The notes: generated by a model from the sequence alone, not told the origin. Positions 1 through 16,772 are shown, counted from the stretch's first letter. The stretch is DNA of 32,000 bases from Cylindrospermopsis raciborskii Cr2010 (GCF_003367075.2 NZ_CP065936.1:3270001-3302000); one strand, 5' to 3'. Translations and numbers: made by a program.

Positions 1-734
1 CCATGGTAGTGTTTGGGAGACCCAAGGGTCACCGGGGGTCTTATCGACAGTGGGAAGAGGATAATATTCCCCCCCAGGTGGTGTTTGAAATTTTATCTCC
101 TGGTAATAATAATACTGAGATGGACAGAAAAAAGCTCTTTTATCTAGAACATGGAGTGGAGGAGTATTATGTATATGATCCAGATAGGATTAGTCTAGAA
201 GTATCCATTAGGGAAAATAACTCATTTAAGGAAATTGAGAATTTTACCACTTGGACCAGCCCAAGATTGAAAATAAGATTTGACATGAGCCAAGATGAAT
301 TAGTCATCTATTATCCAGATGGGAGTAAGTTTCTTAGTCCTGTAGAATTGAGTAATTATGCAGAACAAGAAAGATTTCTCAAAGAACAAGAAACTCAACG
401 TGCAGAACGTGAAAAATTGCTTAAAGAGCAAGAAACCCAACGTGCAGAACGTGAAAAATTGCTTAAAGAGCAAGAAACCCAACGTGCAGAACGTGAAAGA
501 CTTATCAAAGAACAAGAAACTCAACGTGCAGAACGCGAAAGACTTCTCAAAGAGCAGGAAACTCAACGTGCAGAACAAGAAACTCAACGTGCAGAACGTG
601 AAAGACTTCTCAAAGAGCAGGAAACTCAACGTGCAGAACGTGAAAGACTTCTCAAAGAGCAGGAACAAATAAAGTATCAAACCTTGCTATCACAATTAAA
701 AGCTAAGGGTATTGATATTACTGCACTCGAATAA
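1..734 (+). CDS. Uma2-family (DUF820, PD-(D/E)xK) endonuclease with C-terminal E/R/K-rich repeat tract; array copy 0, 5' end cut by the window
   Basis: The frame is open from the window edge to TAA 732-734. The protein matches the C-terminal 243 aa of the full copies and includes the Uma2 core ..PPQVVFEILSPGNNNTEMDRKKLFYLEHGVEEYYVYDP... It has 7 QETQRAE motifs. Confidence 0.9.
   Translation, partial: MVVFGRPKGHRGSYRQWEEDNIPPQVVFEILSPGNNNTEMDRKKLFYLEHGVEEYYVYDPDRISLEVSIRENNSFKEIENFTTWTSPRLKIRFDMSQDELVIYYPDGSKFLSPVELSNYAEQERFLKEQETQRAEREKLLKEQETQRAEREKLLKEQETQRAERERLIKEQETQRAERERLLKEQETQRAEQETQRAERERLLKEQETQRAERERLLKEQEQIKYQTLLSQLKAKGIDITALE
360..668 (+). repeat. 42-bp (14-aa) coding VNTR, copy 0: 7 QETQRAE motifs
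   Basis: Units caagaaac(t/c)caacgtgcagaacg(t/c)gaaa(aattgctt/gacttctc)aaagag, with one 21-bp half unit. Confidence 0.95.
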
Positions 735-800
735 ACTATTACCTCCACCAGAATACCCTTGGGAGGTTTTTAAAAACTGGAGTTTATACTAAAGAGAAGA

Positions 801-1040
801 GCGATTGGGAAGCACTCCCTACGGGAGCTGGCGAAACACTCTCTATGGGAGCTCCCCAGGGGATTAACCATAATTGTTTAAATTAACCCCTACCTGGAGA
901 CTGTTTGTGGGGGAGACCGGTCTCAAAGCGAAAGTCAGTTTAAAACCGACTAGTTTTGTCGTGGGTAATCGTAGGTTGGGTTGAGGCACGAAACCCAACA
1001 AACCAACCGGATATATATAAATGCGATTGACTCCATACAG
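801..1040 (+). repeat. Optional 240-bp spacer module A (present in long spacers only)
   Basis: It starts at gcgattgggaagcactccctacgggag and ends just before the paralogous gcgattgcgaagcactccctacgggag of module B. Other copies: 3599-3838, 5109-5348, 6710-6946, 9711-9950, 12429-12668, 13929-14168, and a truncated copy at 15408-15516. It is absent from the short spacers 2319-2612, 8364-8657 and 11208-11501. It contains the palindrome gagaccggtctc, the hairpin agtcagtttaaaaccgact and the hairpin GTTGGGTTgaggcacgAAACCCAAC. Confidence 0.9.
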
Positions 1041-1158
1041 GCGATTGCGAAGCACTCCCTACGGGAGATCGCCAATTACCCGTTATTGTTTAAATTAATC
1101 CATACCTGGAGACTGTCTATTGGGGAGACCGGGAATCAATTTTGGGTCTCAAAGCGAA

Positions 1159-1186
1159 AGTCGGTTTAAAACCGACTGGTTTTGTG
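1159..1186 (+). terminator. Terminator-like hairpin followed by GGTTTTGTG; representative of one per cassette
   Basis: agtcggtttaaaaccgact is a 7-9 bp stem followed by a U-rich tract. It lies about 100 nt upstream of each Uma2 ATG and could insulate each cassette from read-through. No transcript data are available. Confidence 0.4.
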
Positions 1187-1231
1187 ATATTGTAAGTTGA
1201 GTTCAATAACTCAACATCCCTAAACAAACTA

Positions 1232-1240
1232 TGTTATATT
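1232..1240 (+). promoter_or_regulatory. Extended -10-like box TGtTATATT; representative, at the same offset in every cassette
   Basis: It lies 44-52 nt upstream of the ATG. No convincing -35 hexamer is visible at 17-bp spacing. The call is inferred from sequence only. Confidence 0.3.
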
Positions 1241-1270
1241 AAATTAAACCGATTAAGTCAGTACCAAAGT

Positions 1271-1276
1271 GGGAGG
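1271..1276 (+). promoter_or_regulatory. Shine-Dalgarno GGGAGG, 7 nt before ATG 1284; representative and conserved in all ten visible gene starts
   Basis: The context is aaagtGGGAGGtatagacATG, identical in all cassettes. Confidence 0.75.
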
Positions 1277-1283
1277 TATAGAC

Positions 1284-2318
1284 ATGGTGAGGCAAATTCC
1301 ATCAAAAACTCAACTGGGGGTGATAAAATCTAACACTAATCAGGGTGTGGAGACGCCTAAAATTGTCTACCCAGAAAGTGATAATAAACCTATGGCGGAT
1401 AACACTAGACAATTTACATGGATTGTCAAAATTAAGGAAAATTTAGAAATACTATTTAAGTCCAATGCGGATGTGTTTGTGGCTGGGGACTTATTTTGGT
1501 ATCCAGTGGAGGGTAGTAACAAAATTAAACTAGCCCCTGACACCATGGTAGTGTTTGGGAGACCCAAGGGGCACCGGGGGTCTTATCGACAGTGGGAAGA
1601 GAATAATATTCCACCCCAGGTGGTGTTTGAAATTTTATCTCCTGGTAATAATAATACTGAGATGGACAGAAAAAAGCTCTTTTATCTAGAACATGGAGTG
1701 GAGGAGTATTATGTATATGATCCAGATAGGATTAGTCTAGAAGTATCCATTAGGGAAAATAACTCATTTAAGGAAATTGAGAATTTTACCACTTGGACCA
1801 GTCCAAGATTGAAAATAAGATTTGACATGAGCCAAGATGAATTAGTCATCTATTATCCAGATGGGAGTAAGTTTCTTAGTCCTGTAGAATTGAGTAATTA
1901 TGCAGAACAAGAAAGATTTCTCAAAGAACAAGAAACTCAACGTGCAGAACGTGAAAAATTGCTTAAAGAGCAAGAAACTCAACGTGCAGAACGTGAAAAA
2001 TTGCTTAAAGAGCAAGAAACCCAACGTGCAGAACGTGAAAGACTTATCAAAGAACAAGAAACTCAACGTGCAGAACGCGAAAGACTTCTCAAAGAGCAGG
2101 AAACTCAACGTGCAGAACAAGAAACTCAACGTGCAGAACGTGAAAGACTTCTCAAAGAGCAGGAAACTCAACGTGCAGAACGTGAAAGACTTCTCAAAGA
2201 GCAGGAAACTCAACGTGCAGAACGTGAAAGACTTCTCAAAGAGCAGGAACAAATAAAGTATCAAACCTTGCTATCACAATTAAAAGCTAAGGGTATTGAT
2301 ATTACTGCACTCGAATAA
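1284..2318 (+). CDS. Uma2-family endonuclease, array copy 1 (intact, longest intact repeat tract)
   Basis: The ORF track gives 1269-2318 (349 aa from GTG). ATG 1284 lies 7 nt after GGGAGG (1271-1276), and the GTG overlaps that SD, so ATG is preferred. Uma2 hallmarks: ADVFVAGDLFWYP, then VVFEILSP..D..KK..Y...GVEEYYVYDP (acidic/E-x-S-P/K pattern of the PD-(D/E)xK core). There are 8 QETQRAE motifs, then the tail YQTLLSQLKAKGIDITALE. Confidence 0.92.
   Translation: MVRQIPSKTQLGVIKSNTNQGVETPKIVYPESDNKPMADNTRQFTWIVKIKENLEILFKSNADVFVAGDLFWYPVEGSNKIKLAPDTMVVFGRPKGHRGSYRQWEENNIPPQVVFEILSPGNNNTEMDRKKLFYLEHGVEEYYVYDPDRISLEVSIRENNSFKEIENFTTWTSPRLKIRFDMSQDELVIYYPDGSKFLSPVELSNYAEQERFLKEQETQRAEREKLLKEQETQRAEREKLLKEQETQRAERERLIKEQETQRAERERLLKEQETQRAEQETQRAERERLLKEQETQRAERERLLKEQETQRAERERLLKEQEQIKYQTLLSQLKAKGIDITALE
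1902..2252 (+). repeat. 42-bp coding VNTR, copy 1: 8 motifs (351 bp)
   Basis: Unit order is ERFLK, EKLLK, EKLLK, ERLIK, ERLLK, half unit, ERLLK, ERLLK, ERLLK. Confidence 0.95.
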
Positions 2319-2324
2319 ACTATT

Positions 2325-2355
2325 ACCTCCACCAGAATACCCTTGGGAGGTTTTT
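2325..2355 (+). terminator. Weak post-stop hairpin plus T5 run; representative of the one found after each Uma2 stop
   Basis: ACCTCC-(15 nt)-GGAGGT followed by TTTTTAAAAA, 7 nt after the TAA. The stem is only 6 bp and is broken in the cctgcacc variants (3541, 6652, 15351). Confidence 0.3.
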
Positions 2356-2627
2356 AAAAACTGGAGTTTATACTAAAGAGAAGAGCGATTGCGAAGCACT
2401 CCCTACGGGAGATCGCCAATTACCCGTTATTGTTTAAATTAATCCATACCTGGAGACTGTCTGTGGGGGAGACCGGGAATCAATTCTGGGTCTCAAAGCG
2501 AAAGTCGGTTTAAAACCGACTGGTTTTGTGATATTGTAAGTTGAGTTCAATAACTCAACATCCCTAAACAAACTATGTTATATTAAATTAAACCGATTAA
2601 GTCAGTACCAAAGTGGGAGGTATAGAC

Positions 2628-3532
2628 ATGGTGAGGCAAATTCCATCAAAAACTCAACTGGGGGTGATAGAATCTAACATTAGTCATGGTGTGGAGACGC
2701 CTAAAATTGTCTACCCAGAAAGTGATAATAAACCTATGGCGGATAACACTAGACAATTTACATGGATTGTCAAAATTAAGGAAAATTTAGAAATACTATT
2801 TAAGTCCAATGCAGATGTGTTTGTGGCTGGGGACTTATTTTGGTATCCAGTGGAGGTAGTAACAAAATTAAACTAGCCCCTGACACCATGGTAGTGTTTG
2901 GGAGACCCAAAGACTCGGGGTCTTATCTACAGTGGGAGGAGGATAATATTCCACCCCAGGTGGTGTTTGAAATTTTATCTCCTGGTAATAATAATACTGA
3001 GATGGACAGAAAAAAGCTCTTTTATCTGGAACATGGAGTGGAGGAGTATTATGTATATGATCCAGATAGGATTAGTCTAGAAGTATCCATTAGGGAAAAT
3101 AACTCATTTAAGGAAATTGAGAATTTTACCACTTGGACCAGTCCAAGATTGAAAATAAGATTTGACATGACCCAAGATGAATTAGTCATCTATTATCCAG
3201 ATGGGAGTAAGTTTCTTAGTCCTGTAGAATTGAGTAATTATGCAGAACAAGAAACTCAACGTGCAGAACGTGAAAAATTGCTTAAAGAGCAAGAAACTCA
3301 ACGTGCAGAACGTGAAAGACTTCTCAAAGAGCAAGAAACCCAACGTGCAGAACGTGAAAGACTTCTCAAAGAACAAGAAACTCAACGTGCAGAGCGTGAA
3401 AGACTTCTCAAAGAGCAGGAAACTCAACGTGCAGAACGCGAAAGACTTCTCAAAGAGCAGGAACAAATAAAGTATCAAACCTTGCTATCACAATTAAAAG
3501 CTAAGGGTATTGATATTACTGCACTCGAATAA
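2628..3532 (+). pseudogene. Uma2-family endonuclease, array copy 2, frame-disrupted (one -1 shift)
   Basis: Split into ORFs 2613-2876 and 2840-3532 by loss of one G (ggagggtag -> ggaggtag, 2855-2856). There is also an in-frame replacement KGHRGSYRQ -> KDSGSYLQ (about 2904-2930), and the first 21-bp half unit of the VNTR is absent. This may be a true frameshift or a homopolymer consensus error. Confidence 0.7.
3242..3466 (+). repeat. 42-bp coding VNTR, copy 2: 5 motifs (225 bp)
   Basis: It lacks the leading ERFLKEQ half unit. Order is EKLLK followed by four ERLLK. Confidence 0.95.
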
Positions 3533-4081
3533 ACTATTACCTGCACCAGAATACCCTTGGGAGGTTTTTAAAAACTGGAGTTTATACTAAAGAGAAGAGC
3601 GATTGGGAAGCACTCCCTACGGGAGCTGGCGAAACACTCTCTATGGGAGCTCCCCAGGGGATTAACCATAATTGTTTAAATTAACCCCTACCTGGAGACT
3701 GTCTGTGGGAGAGACCGGTCTCAAAGCGAAAGTCAGTTTAAAACCGACTAGTTTTGTCATGGGTAATCGTAGGTTGGGTTGAGGCACGAAACCCAACAAA
3801 CCAACCGGATATATATAAATGCGATTGACTCCATACAGGCGATTGCGAAGCACTCCCTAGGGGAGATCGCCAATTACCCGTTATTGTTTAAATTAATCCA
3901 TACCTGGAGACTGTCTGTGGGGGAGACCGGGAATCAATTTTGGGTCTCAAAGCGAAAGTCGGTTTTAAACCGACTGGTTTTGTGATATTGTAAGTTGAGT
4001 TCAATAACTCAACATCCCTAAACAAACTATGTTATATTAAATTAAACCGATTAAGTCAGTACCAAAGTGGGAGGTATAGAC

Positions 4082-5045
4082 ATGGTGAGGCAAATTCCAT
4101 CAAAAACTCAACTGGGGGTGATAGAATCTAACATTAGTCATGGTGTGGAGACGCCTAAAATTGTCTACCCAGAAAGTGATAATAAACCTATGGCGGATAA
4201 CACTAGACAATTTACATGGATTGTCAAAATTAAGGAAAATTTAGAAATACTATTTAAGTCCAATGCGGATGTGTTTGTGTGGGGACTTATTTTGGTATCC
4301 AGTGGAGGTAGTAACAAAATTAAACTAGCCCTGACACCATGGTAGTGTTTGGGAGACCCAAGGGTCACCGGGGTCTTATCGACAGTGGGAAGAGAATAAT
4401 ATTCCACCCAGGTGGTGTTTGAAATTTTATCTCCTGGTAATAATAATACTGAGATGGACAGAAAAAAGCTCTTTATCTAGAACATGGAGTGGAGGAGTAT
4501 TATGTATATGATCCAGATAGGATTAGTCTAGAAGTATCCATTAGGAAAATAACTCATTTAAGGAGATTGAGAATTTTACCACTTGGACCAGTCCAAGATT
4601 GAAAATAAGATTTGACATGAGCCAAGATGAATTAGTCATCTATTATCCAGATGGGAGTAAGTTTCTTAGTCCTGTAGAATTGAGTAATTATGCAGAACAA
4701 GAAAGATTTCTCAAAGAACAAGAAACTCAACATGCAGAACGTGAAAAATTGCTTAAAGAGCAAGAAACTCAACGTGCAGAACGCGAAAGACTTCTCAAAG
4801 AGCAGGAAACCCAACGTGCAGAACGTGAAAAATTGCTTAAAGAGCAAGAAACTCAACGTGCAGAACGCGAAAGACTTCTCAAAGAGCAGGAAACCCAACG
4901 TGCAGAACGTGAAAAATTGCTTAAAGAGCAAGAAACTCAACGTGCAGAACGTGAAAGACTTCTCAAAGAGCAGGAACAAATAAAGTATCAAACCTTGCTA
5001 TCACAATTAAAAGCTAAGGGTATTGATATTACTGCACTCGAATAA
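4082..5045 (+). pseudogene. Uma2-family endonuclease, array copy 3, multiply frame-disrupted
   Basis: Only fragments are open (4067-4345, 4599-5045). Relative to intact copies there is a 2-nt loss near 4279. There are also single-base contractions of G, C, G, C, T and G runs near 4307, 4330, 4371, 4408, 4473 and 4545. One QETQHAE substitution is present. Confidence 0.7.
4692..4979 (+). repeat. 42-bp coding VNTR, copy 3: 6 motifs (288 bp)
   Basis: Alternating EKLLK/ERLLK order, the same as copy 6. Confidence 0.95.
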
Positions 5046-5591
5046 ACTATTACCTCCACCAGAATACCCTTGGGAGGTTTTAAAACTGGGTTTATACTAA
5101 AGAGAAGAGCGATTGGGAAGCACTCCCTACGGGAGCTGGCGAAACACTCTCTATGGGAGCTCCCCAGGGGATTAACCATAATTGTTTAAATTAACCCCTA
5201 CCTGGAGACTGTCTGTGGGAGAGACCGGTCTCAAAGCGAAAGTCAGTTTAAAACCGACTAGTTTTGTCATGGGTAATCGTAGGTTGGGTTGAGGCACGAA
5301 ACCCAACAAACCAACCGGATATATATAAATGCGATTGACTCCATACAGGCGATTGCGAAGCACTCCCTAGGGGAGATCGCCAATTACCCGTTATTGTTTA
5401 AATTAATCCATACCTGGAGACTGTCTGTGGGGGAGACCGGGAATCAATTTTGGGTCTCAAAGCGAAAGTCGGTTTTAAACCGACTGGTTTTGTGATATTG
5501 TAAGTTGAGTTCAATAACTCAACATCCCTAAACAAACTATGTTATATTAAATTAAACCGATTAAGTCAGTACCAAAGTGGGAGGTATAGAC

Positions 5592-6643
5592 ATGGTGAGG
5601 CAAATTCCATCAAAAACTCAACTGGGGGTGATAAAATCTAACACTAATCAGGGTGTGGAGACGCCTAAAATTGTCTACCCAGAAAGTGATAATAAACCTA
5701 TGGCGGATAACACTAGACAATTTACATGGATTGTCAAAATTAAGGAAAATTTAGAAATACTATTTAAGTCTAATGCGGATGTGTTTGTGGCTGGGGACTT
5801 ATTTTGGTATCCAGTGGAGGGTAGTAACAAAATTAAACTAGCCCCTGACACCATGGTGGTGTTTGGGAGACCAAGAGAGCTCGGGGTCTTATCGACAGTG
5901 GGAAGAGAATAATATTCGACCCCAGGTGGTGTTTGAAATTTTATCTCCTGGTAATAATAATACTGAGATGGACAGAAAAAGCTCTTTATCTAGAACATGG
6001 AGTGGAGGAGTATTATGTATATGATCCAGATAGGATTAGTCTAGAAGTATCCATTAGGGAAAATAACTCATTTAAGGAGATTGAGAATTTTACCACTTGG
6101 ACCAGTCCAAGATTGAAAATAAGATTTGACATGAGCCAAGATGAATTAGTCATCTATTATCCAGATGGGAGTAAGTTTCTTAGTCCTGTAGAATTGAGTA
6201 ATTATGCAGAACAAGAAAGATTTCTCAAAGAACAAGAAACTCAACGTGCAGAACGTGAAAAATTGCTTAAAGAGCAAGAAACCCAACGTGCAGAACGTGA
6301 AAGACTTCTCAAAGAACAAGAAACTCAACGTGCAGAACGTGAAAGACTTATCAAAGAACAAGAAACTCAACGTGCAGAACGCGAAAGACTTCTCAAAGAG
6401 CAGGAAACTCAACGTGCAGAACGTGAAAGACTTCTCAAAGAGCAGGAAACTCAACGTGCAGAACGTGAAAGACTTCTCAAAGAGCAGGAAACTCAACGTG
6501 CAGAACAAGAAAGATTTCTCAAAGAACAAGAAACTCAACGTGCAGAACGTGAAAGACTTCTCAAAGAGCAGGAACAAATAAAGTATCAAACCTTGCTATC
6601 ACAATTAAAAGCTAAGGGTATTGATATTACTGCACTCGAATAA
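5592..6643 (+). pseudogene. Uma2-family endonuclease, array copy 4, frame-disrupted
   Basis: ORFs are 5577-5912 and 5933-6643. The segment 5871-5885 is scrambled and 2 nt shorter (..agaccaagagagctcggggtc..). A6->A5 occurs near 5976 and T4->T3 near 5985. The C-terminal part is otherwise intact, with 8 QETQRAE motifs. Confidence 0.7.
6206..6577 (+). repeat. 42-bp coding VNTR, copy 4: 8 motifs (372 bp)
   Basis: Contains ERLIK and an internal QERFLK unit, like copy 7. Confidence 0.95.
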
Positions 6644-7189
6644 ACTATTACCTGCACCAGAATACCCTTGGGAGGTTTTTAAAAACTGGAGTTTATACTA
6701 AAGAGAAGAGCGATTGGGAAGCACTCCCTACGGGAGCTGGCGAAACACTCTCTATGGGAGCCTCCCAGGGATTAACCATAATTGTTTAAATTAACCCCTA
6801 CCTGGAGACTGTCTGTGGGGAGACCGGTCTCAAAGCGAAAGTCAGTTTAAAACCGACTAGTTTTGTCGTGGTAATCGTAGGTTGGGTTGAGGCACGAAAC
6901 CCAACAAACCAACCGGATATATATAAATGCGATTGACTCCATACAGGCGATTGCGAAGCACTCCCTACGGGAGATCGCCAATTACCCGTTATTGTTTAAA
7001 TTAATCCATACCTGGAGACTGTCTGTGGGGGAGACCGGGAATCAATTTTGGGTCTCAAAGCGAAAGTCGGTTTTAAACCGACTGGTTTTGTGATATTGTA
7101 AGTTGAGTTCAATAACTCAACATCCCTAAACAAACTATGTTATATTAAATTAAACCGATTAAGTCAGTACCAAAGTGGGAGGTATAGAC

Positions 7190-8363
7190 ATGGTGAGGCA
7201 AATTCCATCAAAAACTCAACTGGGGGTGATAAAATCTAACACTAATCAGGGTGTGGAGACGCCTAAAATTGTCTACCCAGAAAGTGATAATAAACCTATG
7301 GCGGATAACACTAGACAATTTACATGGATTGTCAAAATTAAGGAAAATTTAGAAATACTATTTAAGTCTAATGCGGATGTGTTTGTGGCTGGGGACTTAT
7401 TTTGGTATCCAGTGGAGGGTAGTAACAAAATTAAACTAGCCCCTGACACCATGGTAGTGTTTGGGAGACCCAAGGCACTGGGGTCTTATCGACAGTGGGA
7501 AGAGAATAATATTCACCCAGGTGGTGTTTGAAATTTTATCTCCTGGTAATAATAATACTGAGATGGACAGAAAAAGCTCTTTTATCTAGAACATGGAGTG
7601 GAGGAGTATTATGTATATGATCCAGATAGGATTAGTCTAGAAGTATCCATTAGGAAAATAACTCATTTAAGGAGATTGAGAATTTTACCACTTGGACCAG
7701 TCCAAGATTGAAAATAAGATTTGACATGAGCCAAGATGAATTAGTCATCTATTATCCAGATGGGAGTAAGTTTCTTAGTCCTGTAGAATTGAGTAATTAT
7801 GCAGAACAAGAAAGATTTCTCAAAGAACAAGAAACTCAACGTGCAGAACGTGAAAAATTGCTTAAAGAGCAAGAAACTCAACGTGCAGAACGTGAAAAAT
7901 TGCTAAAGAGCAAGAAACCCAACGTGCAGAACGTGAAAGACTTATCAAAGAACAAGAAACTCAACGTGCAGAACGCGAAAGACTTCTCAAAGAGCAGGAA
8001 ACTCAACGTGCAGAACAAGAAACTCAACGTGCAGAACGTGAAAAATTGCTTAAAGAGCAAGAAACCCAACGTGCAGAACGTGAAAGACTTATCAAAGAAC
8101 AAGAAACTCAACGTGCAGAACGCGAAAGACTTCTCAAAGAGCAGGAAACTCAACGTGCAGAACAAGAAACTCAACGTGCAGAACGTGAAAGACTTCTCAA
8201 ACAGCAGGAAACTCAACGTGCAGAACGTGAAAGACTTCTCAAACAGCAGGAAACTCAACGTGCAGAACGTGAAAGACTTCTCAAAGAGCAGGAACAAATA
8301 AAGTATCAAACCTTGCTATCACAATTAAAAGCTAAGGGTATTGATATTACTGCACTCGAATAA
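7190..8363 (+). pseudogene. Uma2-family endonuclease, array copy 5, frame-disrupted; longest VNTR
   Basis: ORFs are 7175-7531, 7708-8301 and 8046-8363. Lesions: an in-frame 3-nt loss (KALGSY, about 7475), a 2-nt loss in attccacccc (about 7513-7519), A6->A5 (about 7572), GGG->GG (about 7653), and a T loss inside the VNTR (ttgcttaaag -> ttgctaaag, about 7904). Confidence 0.7.
7801..8297 (+). repeat. 42-bp coding VNTR, copy 5: 12 motifs (497 bp, includes a 1-nt deletion)
   Basis: Contains a higher-order 147-bp block (EKLLK-ERLIK-ERLLK-half unit) present twice, at 7891-8036 and 8037-8183. Two units read KQQETQRAE. Confidence 0.95.
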
Positions 8364-8672
8364 ACTATTACCTCCACCAGAATACCCTTGGGAGGTTTTT
8401 AAAAACTGGAGTTTATACTAAAGAGAAGAGCGATTGCGAAGCACTCCCTACGGGAGATCGCCAATTACCCGTTATTGTTTAAATTAATCCATACCTGGAG
8501 ACTGTCTGTGGGGGAGACCGGGAATCAATTTTGGGTCTCAAAGCGAAAGTCGGTTTTAAACCGACTGGTTTTGTGATATTGTAAGTTGAGTTCAATAACT
8601 CAACATCCCTAAATAAACTATGTTATATTAAATTAAACCGATTAAGTCAGTACCAAAGTGGGAGGTATAGAC

Positions 8673-9644
8673 ATGGTGAGGCAAATTCCATCAAAAACTC
8701 AACTGGGGGTGATAGAATCTAACATTAGTCAGGGTGTGGAGACGCCTAAAATTGTCTACCCAGAAAGTGATAATAAACCTATGGCGGATAACACTAGACA
8801 ATTTACATGGATTGTCAAAATTAAGGAAAATTTAGAAATACTATTTAAGTCCAATGCGGATGTGTTTGTGGCTGGGGACTTATTTTGGTATCCAGTGGAG
8901 GGTAGTAACAAAATTAAACTAGCCCCTGACACCATGGTAGTGTTTGGGAGACCCAAGGGGCACCGGGGGTCTTATCGACAGTGGGAAGAGAATAATATTC
9001 CACCCCAGGTGGTGTTTGAAATTTTATCTCCTGGTAATAATAATACTGAGATGGACAGAAAAAAGCTCTTTTATCTAGAACATGGAGTGGAGGAGTATTA
9101 TGTATATGATCCAGATAGGATTAGTCTAGAAGTATCCATTAGGGAAAATAACTCATTTAAGGAGATTGAGAATTTTACCACTTGGACCAGTCCAAGATTG
9201 AAAATAAGATTTGACATGAGCCAAGATGAATTAGTCATCTATTATCCAGATGGGAGTAAGTTTCTTAGTCCTGTAGAATTGAGTAATTATGCAGAACAAG
9301 AAAGATTTCTCAAAGAACAAGAAACTCAACGTGCAGAACGTGAAAAATTGCTTAAAGAGCAAGAAACTCAACGTGCAGAACGCGAAAGACTTCTCAAAGA
9401 GCAGGAAACCCAACGTGCAGAACGTGAAAAATTGCTTAAAGAGCAAGAAACTCAACGTGCAGAACGCGAAAGACTTCTCAAAGAGCAGGAAACCCAACGT
9501 GCAGAACGTGAAAAATTGCTTAAAGAGCAAGAAACTCAACGTGCAGAACGTGAAAGACTTCTCAAAGAGCAGGAACAAATAAAGTATCAAACCTTGCTAT
9601 CACAATTAAAAGCTAAGGGTATTGATATTACTGCACTCGAATAA
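8673..9644 (+). CDS. Uma2-family endonuclease, array copy 6 (intact)
   Basis: Continuous ORF 8658-9644 (328 aa from GTG). ATG 8673 follows the GGGAGG SD. Core motifs match copy 1. N-terminal patch ESNISQ; 6 QETQRAE motifs in alternating EKLLK/ERLLK order. Confidence 0.92.
   Translation: MVRQIPSKTQLGVIESNISQGVETPKIVYPESDNKPMADNTRQFTWIVKIKENLEILFKSNADVFVAGDLFWYPVEGSNKIKLAPDTMVVFGRPKGHRGSYRQWEENNIPPQVVFEILSPGNNNTEMDRKKLFYLEHGVEEYYVYDPDRISLEVSIRENNSFKEIENFTTWTSPRLKIRFDMSQDELVIYYPDGSKFLSPVELSNYAEQERFLKEQETQRAEREKLLKEQETQRAERERLLKEQETQRAEREKLLKEQETQRAERERLLKEQETQRAEREKLLKEQETQRAERERLLKEQEQIKYQTLLSQLKAKGIDITALE
9291..9578 (+). repeat. 42-bp coding VNTR, copy 6: 6 motifs (288 bp)
   Basis: Alternating EKLLK/ERLLK units. 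Confidence 0.95.
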
Positions 9645-10193
9645 ACTATTACCTCCACCAGAATACCCTTGGGAGGTTTTTAAAAACTGGAGTTTATACT
9701 AAAGAGAAGAGCGATTGCGAAGCACTCCCTACGGGAGCTGGCGAAACACTCTCTATGGGAGCTCCCCAGGGGATTAACCATAATTGTTTAAATTAACCCC
9801 TACCTGGAGACTGTCTGTGGGAGAGACCGGTCTCAAAGCGAAAGTCAGTTTAAAACCGACTAGTTTTGTCATGGGTAATCGTAGGTTGGGTTGAGGCACG
9901 AAACCCAACAAACCAACCGGATATATATAAATGCGATTGACTCCATACAGGCGATTGCGAAGCACTCCCTAGGGGAGATCGCCAATTACCCGTTATTGTT
10001 TAAATTAATCCATACCTGGAGACTGTCTGTGGGGGAGACCGGGAATCAATTTTGGGTCTCAAAGCGAAAGTCGGTTTTAAACCGACTGGTTTTGTGATAT
10101 TGTAAGTTGAGTTCAATAACTCAACATCCCTAAATAAACTATGTTATATTAAATTAAACCGATTAAGTCAGTACCAAAGTGGGAGGTATAGAC

Positions 10194-11207
10194 ATGGTGA
10201 GGCAAATTCCATCAAAAACTCAACTGGGGGTGATAGAATCTAACATTAGTCAGGGTGTGGAGACGCCTAAAATTGTCTACCCAGAAAGTGATAATAAACC
10301 TATGGCGGATAACACTAGACAATTTACATGGATTGTCAAAATTAAGGAAAATTTAGAAATACTATTTAAGTCCAATGCGGATGTGTTTGTGGCTGGGGAC
10401 TTATTTTGGTATCCAGTGGAGGGTAGTAACAAAATTAAACTAGCCCCTGACACCATGGTAGTGTTTGGGAGACCCAAGGGGCACCGGGGGTCTTATCGAC
10501 AGTGGGAAGAGAATAATATTCCACCCCAGGTGGTGTTTGAAATTTTATCTCCTGGTAATAATAATACTGAGATGGACAGAAAAAAGCTCTTTTATCTAGA
10601 ACATGGAGTGGAGGAGTATTATGTATATGATCCAGATAGGATTAGTCTAGAAGTATCCATTAGGGAAAATAACTCATTTAAGGAAATTGAGAATTTTACC
10701 ACTTGGACCAGCCCAAGATTGAAAATAAGATTTGACATGAGCCAAGATGAATTAGTCATCTATTATCCAGATGGGAGTAAGTTTCTTAGTCCTGTAGAAT
10801 TGAGTAATTATGCAGAACAAGAAAGATTTCTCAAAGAACAAGAAACTCAACGTGCAGAACGTGAAAAATTGCTTAAAGAGCAAGAAACCCAACGTGCAGA
10901 ACGTGAAAAATTGCTTAAAGAGCAAGAAACCCAACGTGCAGAACGTGAAAGACTTATCAAAGAACAAGAAACTCAACGTGCAGAACGTGAAAGACTTCTC
11001 AAAGAGCAGGAAACTCAACGTGCAGAACGTGAAAGACTTCTCAAAGAGCAGGAAACTCAACGTGCAGAACAAGAAAGATTTCTCAAAGAACAAGAAACTC
11101 AACGTGCAGAACGTGAAAGACTTCTCAAAGAGCAGGAACAAACAAAGTATCAAACCTTGCTATCACAATTAAAAGCTAAGGGTATTGATATTACTGCACT
11201 CGAATAA
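10194..11207 (+). CDS. Uma2-family endonuclease, array copy 7 (intact)
   Basis: Continuous ORF 10179-11207 (342 aa from GTG). SD plus ATG 10194. N-terminal patch ESNISQ; 7 QETQRAE motifs. Private change EQIKYQ -> EQTKYQ. Confidence 0.92.
   Translation: MVRQIPSKTQLGVIESNISQGVETPKIVYPESDNKPMADNTRQFTWIVKIKENLEILFKSNADVFVAGDLFWYPVEGSNKIKLAPDTMVVFGRPKGHRGSYRQWEENNIPPQVVFEILSPGNNNTEMDRKKLFYLEHGVEEYYVYDPDRISLEVSIRENNSFKEIENFTTWTSPRLKIRFDMSQDELVIYYPDGSKFLSPVELSNYAEQERFLKEQETQRAEREKLLKEQETQRAEREKLLKEQETQRAERERLIKEQETQRAERERLLKEQETQRAERERLLKEQETQRAEQERFLKEQETQRAERERLLKEQEQTKYQTLLSQLKAKGIDITALE
10812..11141 (+). repeat. 42-bp coding VNTR, copy 7: 7 motifs (330 bp)
   Basis: Order is ERFLK, EKLLK, EKLLK, ERLIK, ERLLK, ERLLK, QERFLK, ERLLK. 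Confidence 0.95.
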
Positions 11208-11516
11208 ACTATTACCTCCACCAGAATACCCTTGGGAGGTTTTTAAAAACTGGAGTTTATACTAAAGAGAAGAGCGATTGCGAAGCACTCCCTAGGGGAG
11301 ATCGCCAATTACCCGTTATTGTTTAAATTAATCCATACCTGGAGACTGTCTGTGGGGGAGACCGGGAATCAATTCTGGGTCTCAAAGCGAAAGTCGGTTT
11401 AAAACCGACTGGTTTTGTGATATTGTAAGTTGAGTTCAATAACTCAACATCCCTAAACAAACTATGTTATATTAAATTAAACCGATTAAGTCAGTACCAA
11501 AGTGGGAGGTATAGAC

Positions 11517-12362
11517 ATGGTGAGGCAAATTCCATCAAAAACTCAACTGGGGGTGATAGAATCTAACATTAGTCATGGTGTGGAGACGCCTAAAATTGTC
11601 TACCCAGAAAGTGATAATAAACCTATGGCGGATAACACTAGACAATTTACATGGATTGTCAAAATTAAGGAAAATTTAGAAATACTATTTAAGTCCAATG
11701 CGGATGTGTTTGTGGCTGGGGACTTATTTTGGTATCCAGTGGAAGGTAGTAACAAAATTAAACTAGCCCCTGACACCATGGTAGTGTTTGGGAGACCCAA
11801 GGGGCACCGGGGGTCTTATCGACAGTGGGAAGAGAATAATATTCCCCCCCAGGTGGTGTTTGAAATTTTATCTCCTGGTAATAATAATACTGAGATGGAC
11901 AGAAAAAAGCTCTTTTATCTGGAACATGGAGTGGAGGAGTATTATGTATATGATCCAGATAGGATTAGTCTAGAAGTATCCATTAGGGAAAATAACTCAT
12001 TTAAGGAGATTGAGAATTTTACCACTTGGACCAGTCCAAGATTGAAAATAAGATTTGACATGAGCCAAGATGAATTAGTCATCTATTATCCAGATGGGAG
12101 TAAGTTTCTTAGTCCTGTAGAATTGAGTAATTATGCAGAACAAGAAAGATTTCTCAAAGAACAAGAAACTCAACGTGCAGAACGTGAAAAATTGCTTAAA
12201 GAGCAAGAAACTCAACGTGCAGAACGTGAAAAATTGCTTAAAGAGCAAGAAACCCAACGTGCAGAACGTGAAAGACTTCTCAAAGAGCAGGAACAAATAA
12301 AGTATCAAACCTTGCTATCACAATTAAAAGCTAAGGGTATTGATATTACTGCACTCGAATAA
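11517..12362 (+). CDS. Uma2-family endonuclease, array copy 8 (intact, shortest repeat tract)
   Basis: Continuous ORF 11502-12362 (286 aa from GTG). SD plus ATG 11517. N-terminal patch ESNISH; only 3 QETQRAE motifs. Confidence 0.92.
   Translation: MVRQIPSKTQLGVIESNISHGVETPKIVYPESDNKPMADNTRQFTWIVKIKENLEILFKSNADVFVAGDLFWYPVEGSNKIKLAPDTMVVFGRPKGHRGSYRQWEENNIPPQVVFEILSPGNNNTEMDRKKLFYLEHGVEEYYVYDPDRISLEVSIRENNSFKEIENFTTWTSPRLKIRFDMSQDELVIYYPDGSKFLSPVELSNYAEQERFLKEQETQRAEREKLLKEQETQRAEREKLLKEQETQRAERERLLKEQEQIKYQTLLSQLKAKGIDITALE
12135..12296 (+). repeat. 42-bp coding VNTR, copy 8: 3 motifs (162 bp)
   Basis: The shortest tract: ERFLK, EKLLK, EKLLK, ERLLK. Confidence 0.95.
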
Positions 12363-12911
12363 ACTATTACCTCCACCAGAATACCCTTGGGAGGTTTTTA
12401 AAAACTGGAGTTTATACTAAAGAGAAGAGCGATTGGGAAGTACTCCCTACGGGAGCTGGCGAAACACTCTCTATGGGAGCTCCCCAGGGGATTAACCATA
12501 ATTGTTTAAATTAACCCCTACCTGGAGACTGTCTGTGGGGGAGACCGGTCTCAAAGCGAAAGTCAGTTTAAAACTGACTAGTTTTGTCGTGGGTAATCGT
12601 AGGTTGGGTTGAGGCACGAAACCCAACAAACCAACCGGATATATATAAATGCGATTGACTCCATACAGGCGATTGCGAAGCACTCCCTAGGGGAGATCGC
12701 CAATTACCCGTTATTGTTTAAATTAATCCATACCTGGAGACTGTCTGTGGGGGAGACCGGGAATCAATTTTGGGTCTCAAAGCGAAAGTCGGTTTAAAAC
12801 CGACTGGTTTTGTGATATTGTAAGTTGAGTTCAATAACTCAACATCCCTAAACAAACTATGTTATATTAAATTAAACCGATTAAGTCAGTACCAAAGTGG
12901 GAGGTATAGAC

Positions 12912-13862
12912 ATGGTGAGGCAAATTCCATCAAAAACTCAACTGGGGGTGATAGAATCTAACATTAGTCATGGTGTGGAGACGCCTAAAATTGTCTACCC
13001 AGAAAGTGATAATAAACCTATGGCGGATAACACTAGACAATTTACATGGATTGTCAAAATTAAGGAAAATTTAGAAATACTATTTAAGTCCAATGCGGAT
13101 GTGTTTGTGGCTGGGGACTTATTTTGGTATCCAGTGGAGGGTAGTAACAAAATTAAACTAGCCCCTGACACCATGGTAGTGTTTGGGAGACCCAAGGGTC
13201 ACCGGGGGTCTTATCGACAGTGGGAAGAGGATAATATTCCCCCCCAGGTGGTGTTTGAAATTTTATCTCCTGGTAATAATAATACTGAGATGGACAGAAA
13301 AAAGCTCTTTTATCTAGAACATGGAGTGGAGGAGTATTATGTATATGATCCAGATAGGATTAGTCTAGAAGTATCCATTAGGGAAAATAACTCATTTAAG
13401 GAGATTGAGAATTTTACCACTTGGACCAGTCCAAGATTGAAAATAAGATTTGACATGAGCCAAGATGAATTAGTCATCTATTATCCAGATGGGAGTAAGT
13501 TTCTTAGTCCTGTAGAATTGAGTAATTATGCAGAACAAGAAAGATTTCTCAAAGAACAAGAAACTCAACGTGCAGAACGTGAAAAATTGCTTAAAGAGCA
13601 AGAAACTCAACGTGCAGAACGCGAAAGACTTCTCAAAGAGCAGGAAACCCAACGTGCAGAACGTGAAAAATTGCTTAAAGAACAAGAAACTCAACGTGCA
13701 GAACGCGAAAGACTTCTCAAAGAGCAGGAAACTCAACGTGCAGAACAAGAAACTCAACGTGCAGAACGTGAAAGACTTCTCAAAGAGCAGGAACAAATAA
13801 AGTATCAAACCTTGCTATCACAATTAAAAGCTAAGGGTATTGATATTACTGCACTCGAATAA
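12912..13862 (+). CDS. Uma2-family endonuclease, array copy 9 (intact)
   Basis: Continuous ORF 12897-13862 (321 aa from GTG). SD plus ATG 12912. N-terminal patch ESNISH with the EEDN variant; 6 QETQRAE motifs including one 7-aa half unit. Confidence 0.92.
   Translation: MVRQIPSKTQLGVIESNISHGVETPKIVYPESDNKPMADNTRQFTWIVKIKENLEILFKSNADVFVAGDLFWYPVEGSNKIKLAPDTMVVFGRPKGHRGSYRQWEEDNIPPQVVFEILSPGNNNTEMDRKKLFYLEHGVEEYYVYDPDRISLEVSIRENNSFKEIENFTTWTSPRLKIRFDMSQDELVIYYPDGSKFLSPVELSNYAEQERFLKEQETQRAEREKLLKEQETQRAERERLLKEQETQRAEREKLLKEQETQRAERERLLKEQETQRAEQETQRAERERLLKEQEQIKYQTLLSQLKAKGIDITALE
13530..13796 (+). repeat. 42-bp coding VNTR, copy 9: 6 motifs (267 bp)
   Basis: Includes one 21-bp half unit (QETQRAEQETQRAE). 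Confidence 0.95.
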
Positions 13863-14411
13863 ACTATTACCTCCACCAGAATACCCTTGGGAGGTTTTTA
13901 AAAACTGGAGTTTATACTAAAGAGAAGAGCGATTGGGAAGCACTCCCTACGGGAGCTGGCGAAACACTCTCTATGGGAGCTCCCCAGGGGATTAACCATA
14001 ATTGTTTAAATTAACCCCTACCTGGAGACTGTCTGTGGGAGAGACCGGTCTCAAAGCGAAAGTCAGTTTAAAACCGACTAGTTTTGTCATGGGTAATCGT
14101 AGGTTGGGTTGAGGCACGAAACCCAACAAACCAACCGGATATATATAAATGCGATTGACTCCATACAGGCGATTGCGAAGCACTCCCTAGGGGAGATCGC
14201 CAATTACCCGTTATTGTTTAAATTAATCCATACCTGGAGACTGTCTGTGGGGGAGACCGGGAATCAATTTTGGGTCTCAAAGCGAAAGTCGGTTTTAAAC
14301 CGACTGGTTTTGTGATATTGTAAGTTGAGTTCAATAACTCAACATCCCTAAACAAACTATGTTATATTAAATTAAACCGATTAAGTCAGTACCAAAGTGG
14401 GAGGTATAGAC

Positions 14412-15341
14412 ATGGTGAGGCAAATTGCACCAAAAACTCAACTGGGGGTGATAAAATCTAACACTAATCAGGGTGTGGAGACGCCTAAAATTGTCTACCC
14501 AGAAAGTGATAATAAACCTATGGCGGATAACACTAGACAATTTACATGGATTGTCAAAATTAAGGAAAATTTAGAAATACTATTTAAGTATAATGCGGAT
14601 GTGTTTGTGGCTGGGGACTTATTTTGGTATCCAGTGGAGGGTAGTAACAAAATTAAACTAGCCCCTGACACCATGGTAGTGTTTGGGAGACCCAAGGGGC
14701 ACCGGGGGTCTTATCAACAGTGGGAAGAGAATAATATTCCCCCCCAGGTGGTGTTTGAAATTTTATCTCCTGGTAATAATAATACTGAGATGGACAGAAA
14801 AAAGCTCTTTTATCTAGAACATGGAGTGGAGGAGTATTATGTATATGATCCAGATAGGATTAGTCTAGAAGTATCCATTAGGGAAAATAACTCATTTAAG
14901 GAGATTGAGAATTTTACCACTTGGACCAGTCCAAGATTGAAAATAAGATTTGACATGAGCCAAGATGAATTAGTCATCTATTATCCAGATGGGAGTAAGT
15001 TTCTTAGTCCTGTAGAATTGAGTAATTATGCAGAACAAGAAAGATTTCTCAAAGAACAAGAAACTCAACGTGCAGAACGTGAAAAATTGCTTAAAGAGCA
15101 AGAAACCCAACGTGCAGAACGTGAAAGACTTCTCAAAGAACAAGAAACTCAACGTGCAGAACGTGAAAGACTTCTCAAAGAACAAGAAACTCAACGTGCA
15201 GAACGTGAAAGACTTCTCAAAGAGCAGGAAACTCAACGTGCAGAACGTGAAAGACTTCTCAAAGAGCAGGAACAAATAAAGTATCAAACCTTGCTATCAC
15301 AATTAAGGGCTAAGGGTATTGATATTACTGCACTCGAATAA
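14412..15341 (+). CDS. Uma2-family endonuclease, array copy 10 (intact, terminal and most divergent copy)
   Basis: Continuous ORF 14397-15341 (314 aa from GTG). SD plus ATG 14412. N-terminal patch KSNTNQ; 5 QETQRAE motifs. Private substitutions: QIAPKT, FKYNAD, SYQQWE, QLRAKG. Confidence 0.92.
   Translation: MVRQIAPKTQLGVIKSNTNQGVETPKIVYPESDNKPMADNTRQFTWIVKIKENLEILFKYNADVFVAGDLFWYPVEGSNKIKLAPDTMVVFGRPKGHRGSYQQWEENNIPPQVVFEILSPGNNNTEMDRKKLFYLEHGVEEYYVYDPDRISLEVSIRENNSFKEIENFTTWTSPRLKIRFDMSQDELVIYYPDGSKFLSPVELSNYAEQERFLKEQETQRAEREKLLKEQETQRAERERLLKEQETQRAERERLLKEQETQRAERERLLKEQETQRAERERLLKEQEQIKYQTLLSQLRAKGIDITALE
15030..15275 (+). repeat. 42-bp coding VNTR, copy 10: 5 motifs (246 bp)
   Basis: Order is ERFLK, EKLLK, then four ERLLK. 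Confidence 0.95.
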
Positions 15342-15612
15342 ACTATTACCTGCACCAGAATACCCTTGGGAGGTTTTTAAAAACTGGAGTTTATACTAAA
15401 GAGAAGAGCGATTGGGAAGTACTCCCTACGGGAGCTGGCGAAACACTCTCTATGGGAGCTCCCCAGGGGATTAACCATAATTGTTTAAATTAACCCCTAC
15501 CTGGAGACTGTCTGTGCTATATGCTCCTAAACTACCGCCAAGTACCTCCTGGTTAACTATCTCTATTAGGGGTAATGCTCCTTGTCAAGTATTTGCCAAA
15601 ACCCGATTATTT

Positions 15613-15673
15613 GTAGGATGGGTTAGGGGTAACCCATGGGGGCGTTGGGTTTCATGCTTCAACCCAACCTACG
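15613..15673. repeat. Two short hairpin repeats of the dispersed cyanobacterial type, inverted relative to the array copies
   Basis: GGGTTAggggTAACCC, then GTTGGGTTtcatgcttcAACCCAACCTACG. The second is the reverse orientation of the CGTAGGTTGGGTT..AACCCAAC found in module A. Confidence 0.7.
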
Positions 15674-15772
15674 TTAATAGCCGTTTTCAGACCATAATGG
15701 ACAGCATGTCGCACCATGTCCGCCCACAATCACTAAATCGTAATCAAATCCAGAAGTCTCACCTGATCTCAA
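15674..15772 (-). pseudogene. 32-codon N-terminal stub of a Rossmann-fold FAD/NAD(P)-binding oxidoreductase (gene remnant)
   Basis: My own translation from TTG 15772 gives LRSGETSGFDYDLVIVGGHGATCCPLWSENGY, then TAA (15674-15676). FDYDLVIVGG-x-G resembles the beta-alpha-beta dinucleotide-binding start of FAD oxidoreductases. The frame ends exactly where the hairpin repeat begins. The stub is too short to be functional. Confidence 0.35.
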
Positions 15773-15860
15773 GTTACCATCGGGCAATTACTAAAAAGAG
15801 CAACTAGAAAAAATTTATCCACTGGTTGTTTAATGAAGATGTGAATTAAACACATTTGTA

Positions 15861-16772
15861 TTACTCAGGGCAATTATGTCCAATCCAACCTAAAATCACC
15901 TGATTAACCAGTTCAGGTGACTCATCATGGGGACAATGACCCACCTCTTGTAAATATAACACTTCTAACTTATCATTATATTTAGCAAATTCAGAAGCCA
16001 ATTTAGGTGGGATAAATCTATCCTTTTCTCCCCAAATCAACAGCATAGGAATGGTTAAATTGGGTAATAGAGTCTTAGCGCTAGGACTAAATTCCGCACC
16101 AATAGAGGCTTTAAACAGGGCGATAAAAGCACGAGTAGAACCTCTATCTTGGGGTGGTCCTGCCAAAATATCAATTAACTCATCCGTGATAGCTTGGGGG
16201 TGGGCATAAGCAAGACCAGCCCAGCGTCTGAGCACAGCTGGTTGACGAATGAAATTGAATAGGGGTTTGAGCAACAGCGGAGAGGCGAATATACCCTTAA
16301 TTCCCCTCACCAGGGGATGAAGAAAAGGTGGTAAAACCTCCTGTTCCAGATTAGGATCGGGTAAACTCATCATCACCATACCCTGAACCATATCGGGATG
16401 AACTGCTGCTGCTACTAGGGTAACTAGGGAACCAAGAGAGTTACCTATTAATATTACAGGATGATGGATAAAAGTCTGCCAAAAATCATAAAGTTGCTCC
16501 ACCCACAGATTGACACTGTAATTAGCGGGAACCTTTTCAGAACCGCCAAAACCCAGCATATCCAGAGCATAAACCGTGTGGTGTTTTCCCAACACCTCTA
16601 AATTATGTCGCCAATGACCAATAGAAGCACCAAAGCCATGTAGCAAGATTAAAGGAGTTGCAGTTTGGTGGTGATTCACAGGGCGGATAAAAGTATAGCG
16701 GATTTGCCAACCTCTCCATACCCAGTCCCTTTGATTACCGACTCGTTTTTGCCAAGATAAAGCTGTTGTCAC
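15861..16772 (-). CDS. alpha/beta-fold hydrolase
   Basis: 303-aa ORF with a GTG start at 16772. It carries the HGFGAS oxyanion-hole motif, the nucleophile elbow GNSLGS (G-x-S-x-G) and a C-terminal catalytic His context EVGHCPHDE. Length is typical of the family. Confidence 0.88.
   Translation of the reverse strand: MTTALSWQKRVGNQRDWVWRGWQIRYTFIRPVNHHQTATPLILLHGFGASIGHWRHNLEVLGKHHTVYALDMLGFGGSEKVPANYSVNLWVEQLYDFWQTFIHHPVILIGNSLGSLVTLVAAAVHPDMVQGMVMMSLPDPNLEQEVLPPFLHPLVRGIKGIFASPLLLKPLFNFIRQPAVLRRWAGLAYAHPQAITDELIDILAGPPQDRGSTRAFIALFKASIGAEFSPSAKTLLPNLTIPMLLIWGEKDRFIPPKLASEFAKYNDKLEVLYLQEVGHCPHDESPELVNQVILGWIGHNCPE

Follow-up and report, generated by a model that had tools for sequence, protein, structure and literature searches.

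The first 15,516 nucleotides of a 32,000-nucleotide stretch of the genome of the bloom-forming cyanobacterium Cylindrospermopsis raciborskii Cr2010 (NZ_CP065936.1:3270001-3302000), here called the window, are filled by eleven cassettes, each built around a gene of the Uma2 (DUF820) family and arranged head-to-tail on the + strand with a unit size of 1.3-1.6 kb. Few protein families have expanded as much in cyanobacteria as Uma2, which has, to our knowledge, no known function. The same cassette forms arrays at several loci, strong purifying selection acts on the enzyme core, and variation is confined to the N-terminal tail, the length of a C-terminal stalk, the modules of the spacers and the number of units. 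On balance we lean towards the view that this is a long-standing, selectively maintained multi-copy array, whose products would be partnerless nucleases with restricted targets, made at high dose and in variants that differ in stalk length.

A sequence-only reading of the window had proposed an eleven-cassette, single-gene tandem array with its start outside the window, and both points are borne out by motif counts, by the positions of the stop codons and by a hidden Markov model match to Uma2 (Table 1). A motif search of the window found the 25-nt gene-start motif GTGGGAGGTATAGACATG ten times (at 1269, 2613, 4067, 5577, 7175, 8658, 10179, 11502, 12897 and 14397) and a 30-nt gene-end motif eleven times, both on the + strand only; the stop codons end where the copies end in Table 1. 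The first cassette is cut off by the start of the window and the array reaches beyond it. At the other side, homology between units stops at 15516, within the first module of the final, truncated spacer.

The family assignment is secure, since the protein scores 59.4 bits (E 4.1e-16) with the Pfam Uma2 model (PF05685), whose cutoff is 27. By sequence it also matches 6okh and 9y1l, both solved Uma2-like structures, with which the motif FEILSPGN...K..Y..GV.EY aligns. Using the copy 9 protein as the query for all homology comparisons, we found D69, D86 (of APD), E116/S119 (of FEILS), N122, K130 and E141 to be invariant in 79 homologues from many phyla and to be retained here; D69, D86, E116/S119 and K130 are present in all 26 Cylindrospermopsis variants aligned. 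Judged by its sequence, the product is a three-part protein, with a predicted PD-(D/E)xK Uma2 domain followed by a highly charged, probably single-helix stalk and a conserved C-terminal peptide, YQTLLSQLKAKGIDITALE. The number of stalk units differs in every copy, and protein length across the arrays runs from 246 to 372 residues in 7-residue steps. The stalk has a period of 14 residues (ERLLKEQETQRAER), with 56% E/R/K and 14% hydrophobic residues, a composition that would place it nearer to an ER/K-type single alpha-helix spacer than to a classic coiled coil. AlphaFold2 predicts one long helix over residues 200-272 at a predicted local distance difference test score (pLDDT) of ~85-93. With the shallow alignment available, residues 1-122 have pLDDT <50 and the mean is 55; the order of secondary structures would be compatible with a restriction-endonuclease-like fold. 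The combination of domain, (ERQRAEQ)n repeat and LRxLGIDP tail is also seen in homologues from cyanobacteria, Chloroflexi, Planctomycetes, Acidobacteria and Desulfobacteraceae.

Cylindrospermopsis (Raphidiopsis) raciborskii and C. curvispora are the source of all the closest proteins, with many length variants per complete genome, and near-identical ones are named 'Uma2 family endonuclease' in public records. Beyond the window, the presence of the array was assessed at loci from three C. raciborskii assemblies (G7, CP073250 and JBPFSD01), in which the genes are annotated as Uma2 endonucleases. When copy number was compared beside the orthologous alpha/beta hydrolase gene, strain G7 (CP195152) proved to carry the same array, from <=3,854,355 to 3,882,486, with at least 20 intact copies against the 11 of the window, ending next to the same hydrolase and the same giant cadherin-like gene. 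The truncated last spacer and the junction are identical base-for-base between the window and G7 over the 260 nt compared, and copy 11 is the orthologue of the terminal 309-residue copy of G7. In CP073250, another independent complete genome, a 21-kb view shows 15 copies, and the run of copies known from G7 is found there with its order unchanged. Drafts assembled from short reads that have an identical hydrolase stop inside the first Uma2 copy. The sequence-only reading had raised the prospect that identical arrays are common and already characterised in related genomes: arrays are indeed present in the three other C. raciborskii assemblies, but no paper describing them was found.

To compare individual copies, the stalk of each was coded as a string of 21-nt unit types, its barcode. 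Every copy has a barcode of its own, and a series of barcodes, identical or nearly so, occurs in one and the same order in both G7 and CP073250. Overlying this shared order are insertions or losses of whole units and swaps of N-tail haplotypes between otherwise orthologous copies. Some change of copy number is also seen, both in a higher-order repeat of G7, where proteins of 351, 274 and 267 residues recur in that order three times, and in a smaller third cluster described below. Synonymous polymorphism (pS) between paralogues is ~0.02, compared with 0.005 in the flanking hydrolase between the window strain and G7, so the array predates the divergence of the strains. It is an old, maintained array that changes slowly, through gain and loss of units by unequal recombination and through gene conversion, and not a fresh or tightly homogenised one. 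The earlier description of it as recently amplified or concertedly evolving is therefore contradicted, by the shared barcode order and by paralogue pS in excess of strain pS.

The same data bear on whether the array could be an artefact of assembly or a transient, strain-specific amplification. Two facts would suit the former: the deletions in copies 3-6 (see below) are clustered and affect short runs, as is typical of a poorly polished long-read consensus, and the locus is unresolvable in short-read drafts. We nevertheless give this explanation almost no credence, given independent complete assemblies with 15 to at least 20 copies, the identical junction and right flank in G7, the copy order common to G7 and CP073250, and the fact that single nucleotide polymorphisms, stalk barcodes and spacer form all distinguish the copies, unlike the product of a collapse-and-expand artefact. 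A transient duplication-amplification is likewise rejected, the units being distinguishable, their order common to strains and pS 0.02 versus 0.005.

Selection was assessed with 33 intact copies from three strains. Over core codons 27-205 pS is 0.0225 and the corresponding nonsynonymous value (pN) 0.0008, giving a ratio of nonsynonymous to synonymous change (dN/dS) of 0.04; core polymorphisms found in more than two copies are all synonymous and the nonsynonymous ones are singletons. The N-terminal tail is quite different: codons 6-20 contain seven nonsynonymous and no synonymous variable sites, which fall into three or four haplotypes.

Further clusters of the same subfamily lie elsewhere. The second in G7 (799,191-829,998) has ~20 copies with ~84% protein identity to the main array and a synonymous divergence (dS) of 0.43, and its spacer filler differs from that of the main array. 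Many of its spacers contain a recurrent 52-residue open reading frame (ORF; MWVRRVTWLYLTDLRER...), which has no Pfam entry on record; it probably does not code for protein, as most differences between its copies are nonsynonymous. A third cluster has three copies in G7 versus four in JBPFSD01 (loci L091 and L092, 8364-14143). It sits between a fatty-acid-hydroxylase-like gene and a radical-SAM gene, making a clean copy-number polymorphism in a housekeeping neighbourhood. Single Uma2 copies occur between housekeeping genes as well as in a region where mobile-element genes abound. Two inverted three-copy mini-arrays lie on an 84-kb plasmid-like contig (JBPFSD010000003; L095 7013-17190), and one cassette copy was found on a C. 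curvispora plasmid. The mini-arrays stand on either side of an HTH_17 gene and a PIN (VapC-like) gene beside a DDE transposase, and their cassettes are of the main-array type, here in a plasmid-like setting. In the sister genus Sphaerospermopsis two adjacent copies are 97% identical. Of 80 loci in other genera, 71 have a single homologue and a few have pairs, with ~63% identity to the query. The fetched G7 loci together hold at least 45 copies (about 20 + 20 + 3 + 2), and from the spans of these loci the subfamily is estimated to occupy ~1.5% of a 4-Mb genome.

The stretch that all clusters have in common begins ~63 nt before the ATG and continues for 24-120 nt after the stop codon. The rest of the spacer consists of a hairpin repeat, GCGATTGCGAAGCACTCCCTAnGGGAG, and its neighbours, dispersed in mobile-element-rich regions that lack Uma2 genes. 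Its matches number 24 within 21 kb of L086 and 19 within the plasmid region L093; beyond the array, the window has no match. The hairpin carries GATCGC (HIP1-like) half-sites; sites in the window include 9711-9737 and 9951-9977. A mobile element with defined ends was looked for and rejected, no terminal repeats or target duplications being found, and an apparent shared left boundary at unit position 370 was discounted because an indel in the upstream hairpin region, which is otherwise the same, accounts for it.

The spacers of the window measure 294 bp in three cases and 531-534 bp in seven, in agreement with the 294 and ~534 bp claimed from the sequence alone; the long form is the short form with an internal duplication of a ~212-226 bp module. 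A TGTTATATT box and a GGGAGG site, the latter 8 nt before the ATG, precede every copy, as the sequence-only reading had also stated, and each cassette has a conserved 5' leader of ~45 nt. Between the promoter-like box and the start codon, ~85-87% identity is kept in the diverged second cluster, and the region can still be made out in the sister genus. Box, leader, ribosome-binding site, gene and terminator-like hairpins together give each cassette the look of an independent transcription unit. The sequence after each stop codon (CTATTACCTCCAC, for example 735-750) is nearly complementary to the ribosome-binding region of the next gene (GTGGGAGGTATAG), and the two pair in the minimum-free-energy fold of the whole spacer. 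This may be nothing but the GGGAGG arm of the terminator hairpin, or it may mask the ribosome-binding site on read-through transcripts. Spacers fold only modestly better than shuffled sequence (z -2.5 and -3.4). A structured RNA or riboswitch was nonetheless rejected, the modules being dispersed hairpin repeat and no Rfam match at E<=1 being present in 1-16000.

Copies 3-6 (2628-8363) together contain 19 deletions of 1-3 nt, compared with none in the other six complete copies. The earlier picture of one Uma2 gene per cassette, each with its own Shine-Dalgarno site and box, consequently holds for those signals in every copy but not for the reading frames of these four as assembled. Most of the deletions lie in or beside short single-base runs, the longest being C7 and A6. 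All 19 coding indels, together with two spacers that are 3 nt short, are concentrated in four consecutive cassettes (2613-8363), a stretch that looks like a part of the assembly that polishing could not reach. All 20 copies observed in strain G7 are intact. The deletions are probably unpolished long-read consensus errors within the repeat. There is a practical warning here, in that the array breaks short-read assemblies and that long-read consensus errors inside it mimic pseudogenes.

An ORF survey of the 15.5-kb array found Uma2 ORFs and repeat-derived ORFs only, and no methylase, antitoxin, transposase or integrase in the unit; with the PADLOC, tRNA and Rfam scans, which included a search for tRNAs in the unit that gave none, this supports the earlier claim that the cassette lacks such genes. 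The only candidates for a spacer partner, ORFs of 62-68 residues (one per strand), are confined to the long spacers, lie inside dispersed-repeat sequence and have no match in PADLOC, the sole library with which they were scanned; they were rejected. Minus-strand ORFs of 77-147 residues in the stalk-encoding variable number tandem repeat (VNTR; MILYLFLLFEKSF...), like ORFs in its alternative frames, are mirror artefacts of the repeat. Several familiar systems can be set aside in the same way. A restriction-modification system is not indicated, the array being Uma2-only, its flank an alpha/beta hydrolase gene, and no methyltransferase neighbouring it. For a type II toxin-antitoxin module there is no small adjacent antitoxin gene, and no Rfam RNA in 1-16000. 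An integron or other site-specific cassette array is contradicted by the absence of an integrase from the window and by all cassettes containing the same gene; it fails also because the spacer modules are a dispersed hairpin repeat rather than unit-bounding recombination sites with defined ends. A phage origin finds no match in 50,697 phage records, and matches to plasmids are limited to the one C. curvispora copy and a distant Geminocystis homologue.

How might such an array arise and persist? We suppose that it originated by recombination between copies of the short dispersed hairpin repeat flanking a cassette, and that it is remodelled today by unequal homologous (RecA-type) recombination and gene conversion between units. 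Such remodelling would add or remove whole cassettes, spacer modules and 21-nt stalk units, always keeping the reading frame, while selection would hold the enzyme core constant and tolerate or favour variation in the N-tail and in stalk length. The products may be partnerless nucleases with restricted, non-self targets, acting in a methylase-independent (type IV-like) defence or in genome policing, a role suggested by analogy. High dose and stalk-length variants could then serve to tether the nuclease at differing distances from whatever binds the C-terminal peptide.

The chief rival to a maintained array of host value is a selfish cassette, a Uma2 'solo toxin' or addictive unit that spreads between replicons and amplifies for itself while the host gains nothing. 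Its own nuclease could, for example, make breaks that are then repaired by unequal recombination. Makarova et al. 2009 (PMC2701414) call Uma2 a likely solo toxin forming paralogous cassettes, and near-identical cassettes do occur beside transposases and an integrase and on plasmid or plasmid-like DNA; arrays arose independently at no fewer than three chromosomal loci as well as on a plasmid-like contig, and the copy number and estimated genome share in G7 point the same way. Neither element ends nor target-site duplications were found, however, homology upstream of the dispersed copies continuing with indels; across strains the junction of the main array is fixed and its neighbour unchanged, and strong purifying selection on the core equally fits a host function. 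We rate the selfish cassette as unlikely, although ahead of the other alternatives. Plain dosage comes next and is less likely again: the cell would need much of one housekeeping protein, for instance in repair or recombination, and would get it from multiple genes, as with the repeated gvpA gas-vesicle genes of cyanobacteria, and variation of stalk and N-tail would be a neutral by-product. Single-copy orthologues are enough in most other genera, stalk barcodes persist from strain to strain and have not been randomised, and the persistence in the same genome of clusters at a dS of 0.43 suggests something more than dose, even though a promoter-like box and ribosome-binding site for every copy, a core protein that is essentially identical throughout, and 21-nt units that preserve the frame whatever recombination does are all as dosage would have them.

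Of the three explanations offered from the sequence alone, a recombinational reservoir, taken in its silent form, fits worst, since every copy has a box and a ribosome-binding site. On this view the copies would supply a single site of expression, in the manner of vls or pilS antigenic variation, and the many variants side by side and the gene-conversion-like swaps of N-tail haplotypes do recall those systems. Yet every copy is full length and has its own promoter-like box, terminator-like hairpins and ribosome-binding site, no separate expression locus exists, and what varies is a short tail and a low-complexity stalk rather than a surface epitope; we regard it as very improbable and, like the artefact, poorly supported. 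A bolder form of the tethering idea, to which we assign an outside chance, below that of plain dosage, is a 'length ladder', in which dozens of co-expressed copies with identical cores and rigid stalks of ~3 to 21 units would vary in reach or spacing, with unequal recombination generating and reshuffling the stalk lengths into a repertoire of tethered nucleases. If true, this would be an undescribed way to diversify a defence or genome-policing enzyme.

Several points weigh against the maintained, partnerless-nuclease array that we favour. Defence is an analogy only, because nuclease activity, target and phenotype are known for no Uma2 protein; the literature searched yielded no biochemical report on any of them. 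PADLOC gave weak matches only (E 4e-10 to 1e-7), to PDC-S03, which is a candidate and not a validated defence system. The structural model of the nuclease domain is poor, so the fold is assigned from sequence evidence. Promoters and terminators are consensus matches only, and copy counts at the main locus are lower bounds, its left edge and total not having been reached. Four copies in the window are frameshifted as assembled; should these frameshifts be genuine, individual copies are under weaker selection than we suggest. The pairs behind dN/dS are non-independent, with few distinct substitutions underneath. Finally, the 7:0 excess in the N-tail is not significant alone (~p 0.13) and fits relaxed constraint, which suffices as an explanation because the N-tail is unconserved across the family. 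Even so, strain-conserved arrays under purifying selection argue that Uma2 does something on which the cell or the cassette depends, and the locus supplies natural variants in stalk length, N-tail and copy number with which Uma2 function can be probed.

Table 1. Coordinates of the array, its signals and selected other features (window positions unless a locus is named)
Feature	Position	Strand	Remarks
Copy 1 Uma2	1..734	+	5' part outside the window; in frame up to the stop
Copy 2 Uma2	1284..2318	+	Intact, 344 aa; ATG at 1284, GGGAGG 8 nt upstream; PF05685 59 bits
Copy 3 Uma2	2628..3532	+	Frameshifted as assembled, 2 deletions
Copy 4 Uma2	4082..5045	+	Frameshifted as assembled, 7 short deletions, mostly in or next to short base runs
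Copy 5 Uma2	5592..6643	+	Frameshifted as assembled, 5 indels
Copy 6 Uma2	7190..8363	+	Frameshifted as assembled, 5 domain deletions and a 1-nt loss within the VNTR
Copy 7 Uma2	8673..9644	+	Intact, 323 aa
Long spacer, 534 bp	9645..10178	+	Post-stop hairpin with T-run, two ~212-226 bp hairpin modules, promoter-like box
Copy 8 Uma2	10194..11207	+	Intact, 337 aa
Short spacer, 294 bp	11208..11501	+	As long spacer, with a single hairpin module
Post-stop hairpin ACCTCC...GGGAGG then TTTTT, terminator-like	11214..11244	+	After every copy
Second terminator-like hairpin with T-run, AGTCGGTTTAAAACCGACT then GGTTTTGT; a second hairpin follows every copy	11392..11418	+	
Promoter-like site TCAACA, 18 nt, TG-TATATT (before every copy)	11444..11473	+	
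Copy 9 Uma2	11517..12362	+	Intact, 281 aa, shortest stalk
In-gene repeat, example	12134..12293	+	21-nt (7-aa) sub-units, 42-nt period; encodes the predicted charged helical stalk
Copy 10 Uma2	12912..13862	+	Intact, 316 aa
Copy 11 Uma2, terminal	14412..15341	+	Intact, 309 aa; most divergent copy in the window
Truncated last spacer	15342..15516	+	Right junction after GACTGTCTGTG, identical in G7
Alpha/beta hydrolase, flanking	15861..16772	-	Conserved right neighbour in G7 and three draft genomes; context, outside the array
52-aa ORF of G7 cluster 2	L087 6457-6615, 16162-16320, 20519-20677; L089 627-785		Four more instances

Beyond the hydrolase gene the window contains what appear to be surface protein genes. 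At 16931-30379 (-) a protein of 4482 residues is encoded, with 17 cadherin stretches and Big_9, VWD, Calx-beta and DUF4114 domains; its gene has internal tandem repeats of 300-309 bp (27255-28168, three copies at 96%; 18758-19397). DNA identity to the G7 orthologue is ~92%, compared with 99.8% for the adjacent hydrolase, and given this lower value it looks like a fast-evolving surface protein. A 365-residue ORF at 30758-31855 (-), with weak Calx-beta, cadherin and dockerin matches, is probably a second adhesin-like gene adjoining the giant one.

Comparison with known systems helps to place the array. In the gvpA/gvpC gas-vesicle genes of Planktothrix and Anabaena, likewise bloom-forming cyanobacteria, tandem multi-copy structural genes, length variants formed by in-frame repeat recombination and strain polymorphism occur together; those proteins are unrelated, of known function and encoded in far fewer copies, while the Uma2 product is a putative enzyme. 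In the duplication-amplification scheme of Roth and Andersson, short flanking repeats and then RecA-dependent unequal crossing-over generate head-to-tail copies. Such classical amplifications are unstable and strain-specific with identical units, whereas the Uma2 array is conserved between strains and has distinct members under purifying selection. The HsdS subunit of type IC systems (e.g. EcoR124I) has a short in-frame repeat that, through unequal crossing-over, changes the length of an alpha-helical spacer and acts as a molecular ruler. In that case the change is proven to alter DNA specificity, and the system includes a methylase; a Uma2 ruler is hypothetical, and its variants coexist in one genome instead of alternating.

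Closer still are two published cases, which between them contradict the earlier statement that Uma2 genes are normally dispersed and that no comparable arrangement has been described. 'Cassettes of paralogous genes' of Uma2/COG4636 were reported in cyanobacteria by Makarova, Wolf and Koonin (2009, PMC2701414), and share with the present array the family, the lack of an antitoxin or methylase partner, the same-strand neighbouring paralogues and the strong lineage-specific expansion. The published observations are gene-pair counts of divergent paralogues; in the present array, 11 to at least 20 copies share 95-100% identity and come with uniform spacers, a copy order conserved across strains and a stalk-length ladder. 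In Thermosynechococcus sp. TA-1, genes for Rpn (recombination-promoting nuclease) form tandem arrays of 11, 3 and 3, and Uma2 is expanded to 15-17 copies (PMC9403480). The Rpn arrays, too, are tandem genes for a PD-(D/E)xK-type nuclease on a cyanobacterial chromosome, but they belong to another nuclease family, and near-identity, internal repeat variation and cross-strain barcodes do not feature in that report, nor are its Uma2 genes described as an array. In the literature searched we found no description of an array on the present scale, with at least 20 near-identical copies per locus and at least 45 per genome, nor of its uniform cassette architecture, the conservation of barcodes across strains or the 7-residue stalk ladder. 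The clustering of Uma2 genes is thus already known and the genes themselves are present in public annotations; what appears to be new is the scale of the array, its uniformity and its ladder of lengths.

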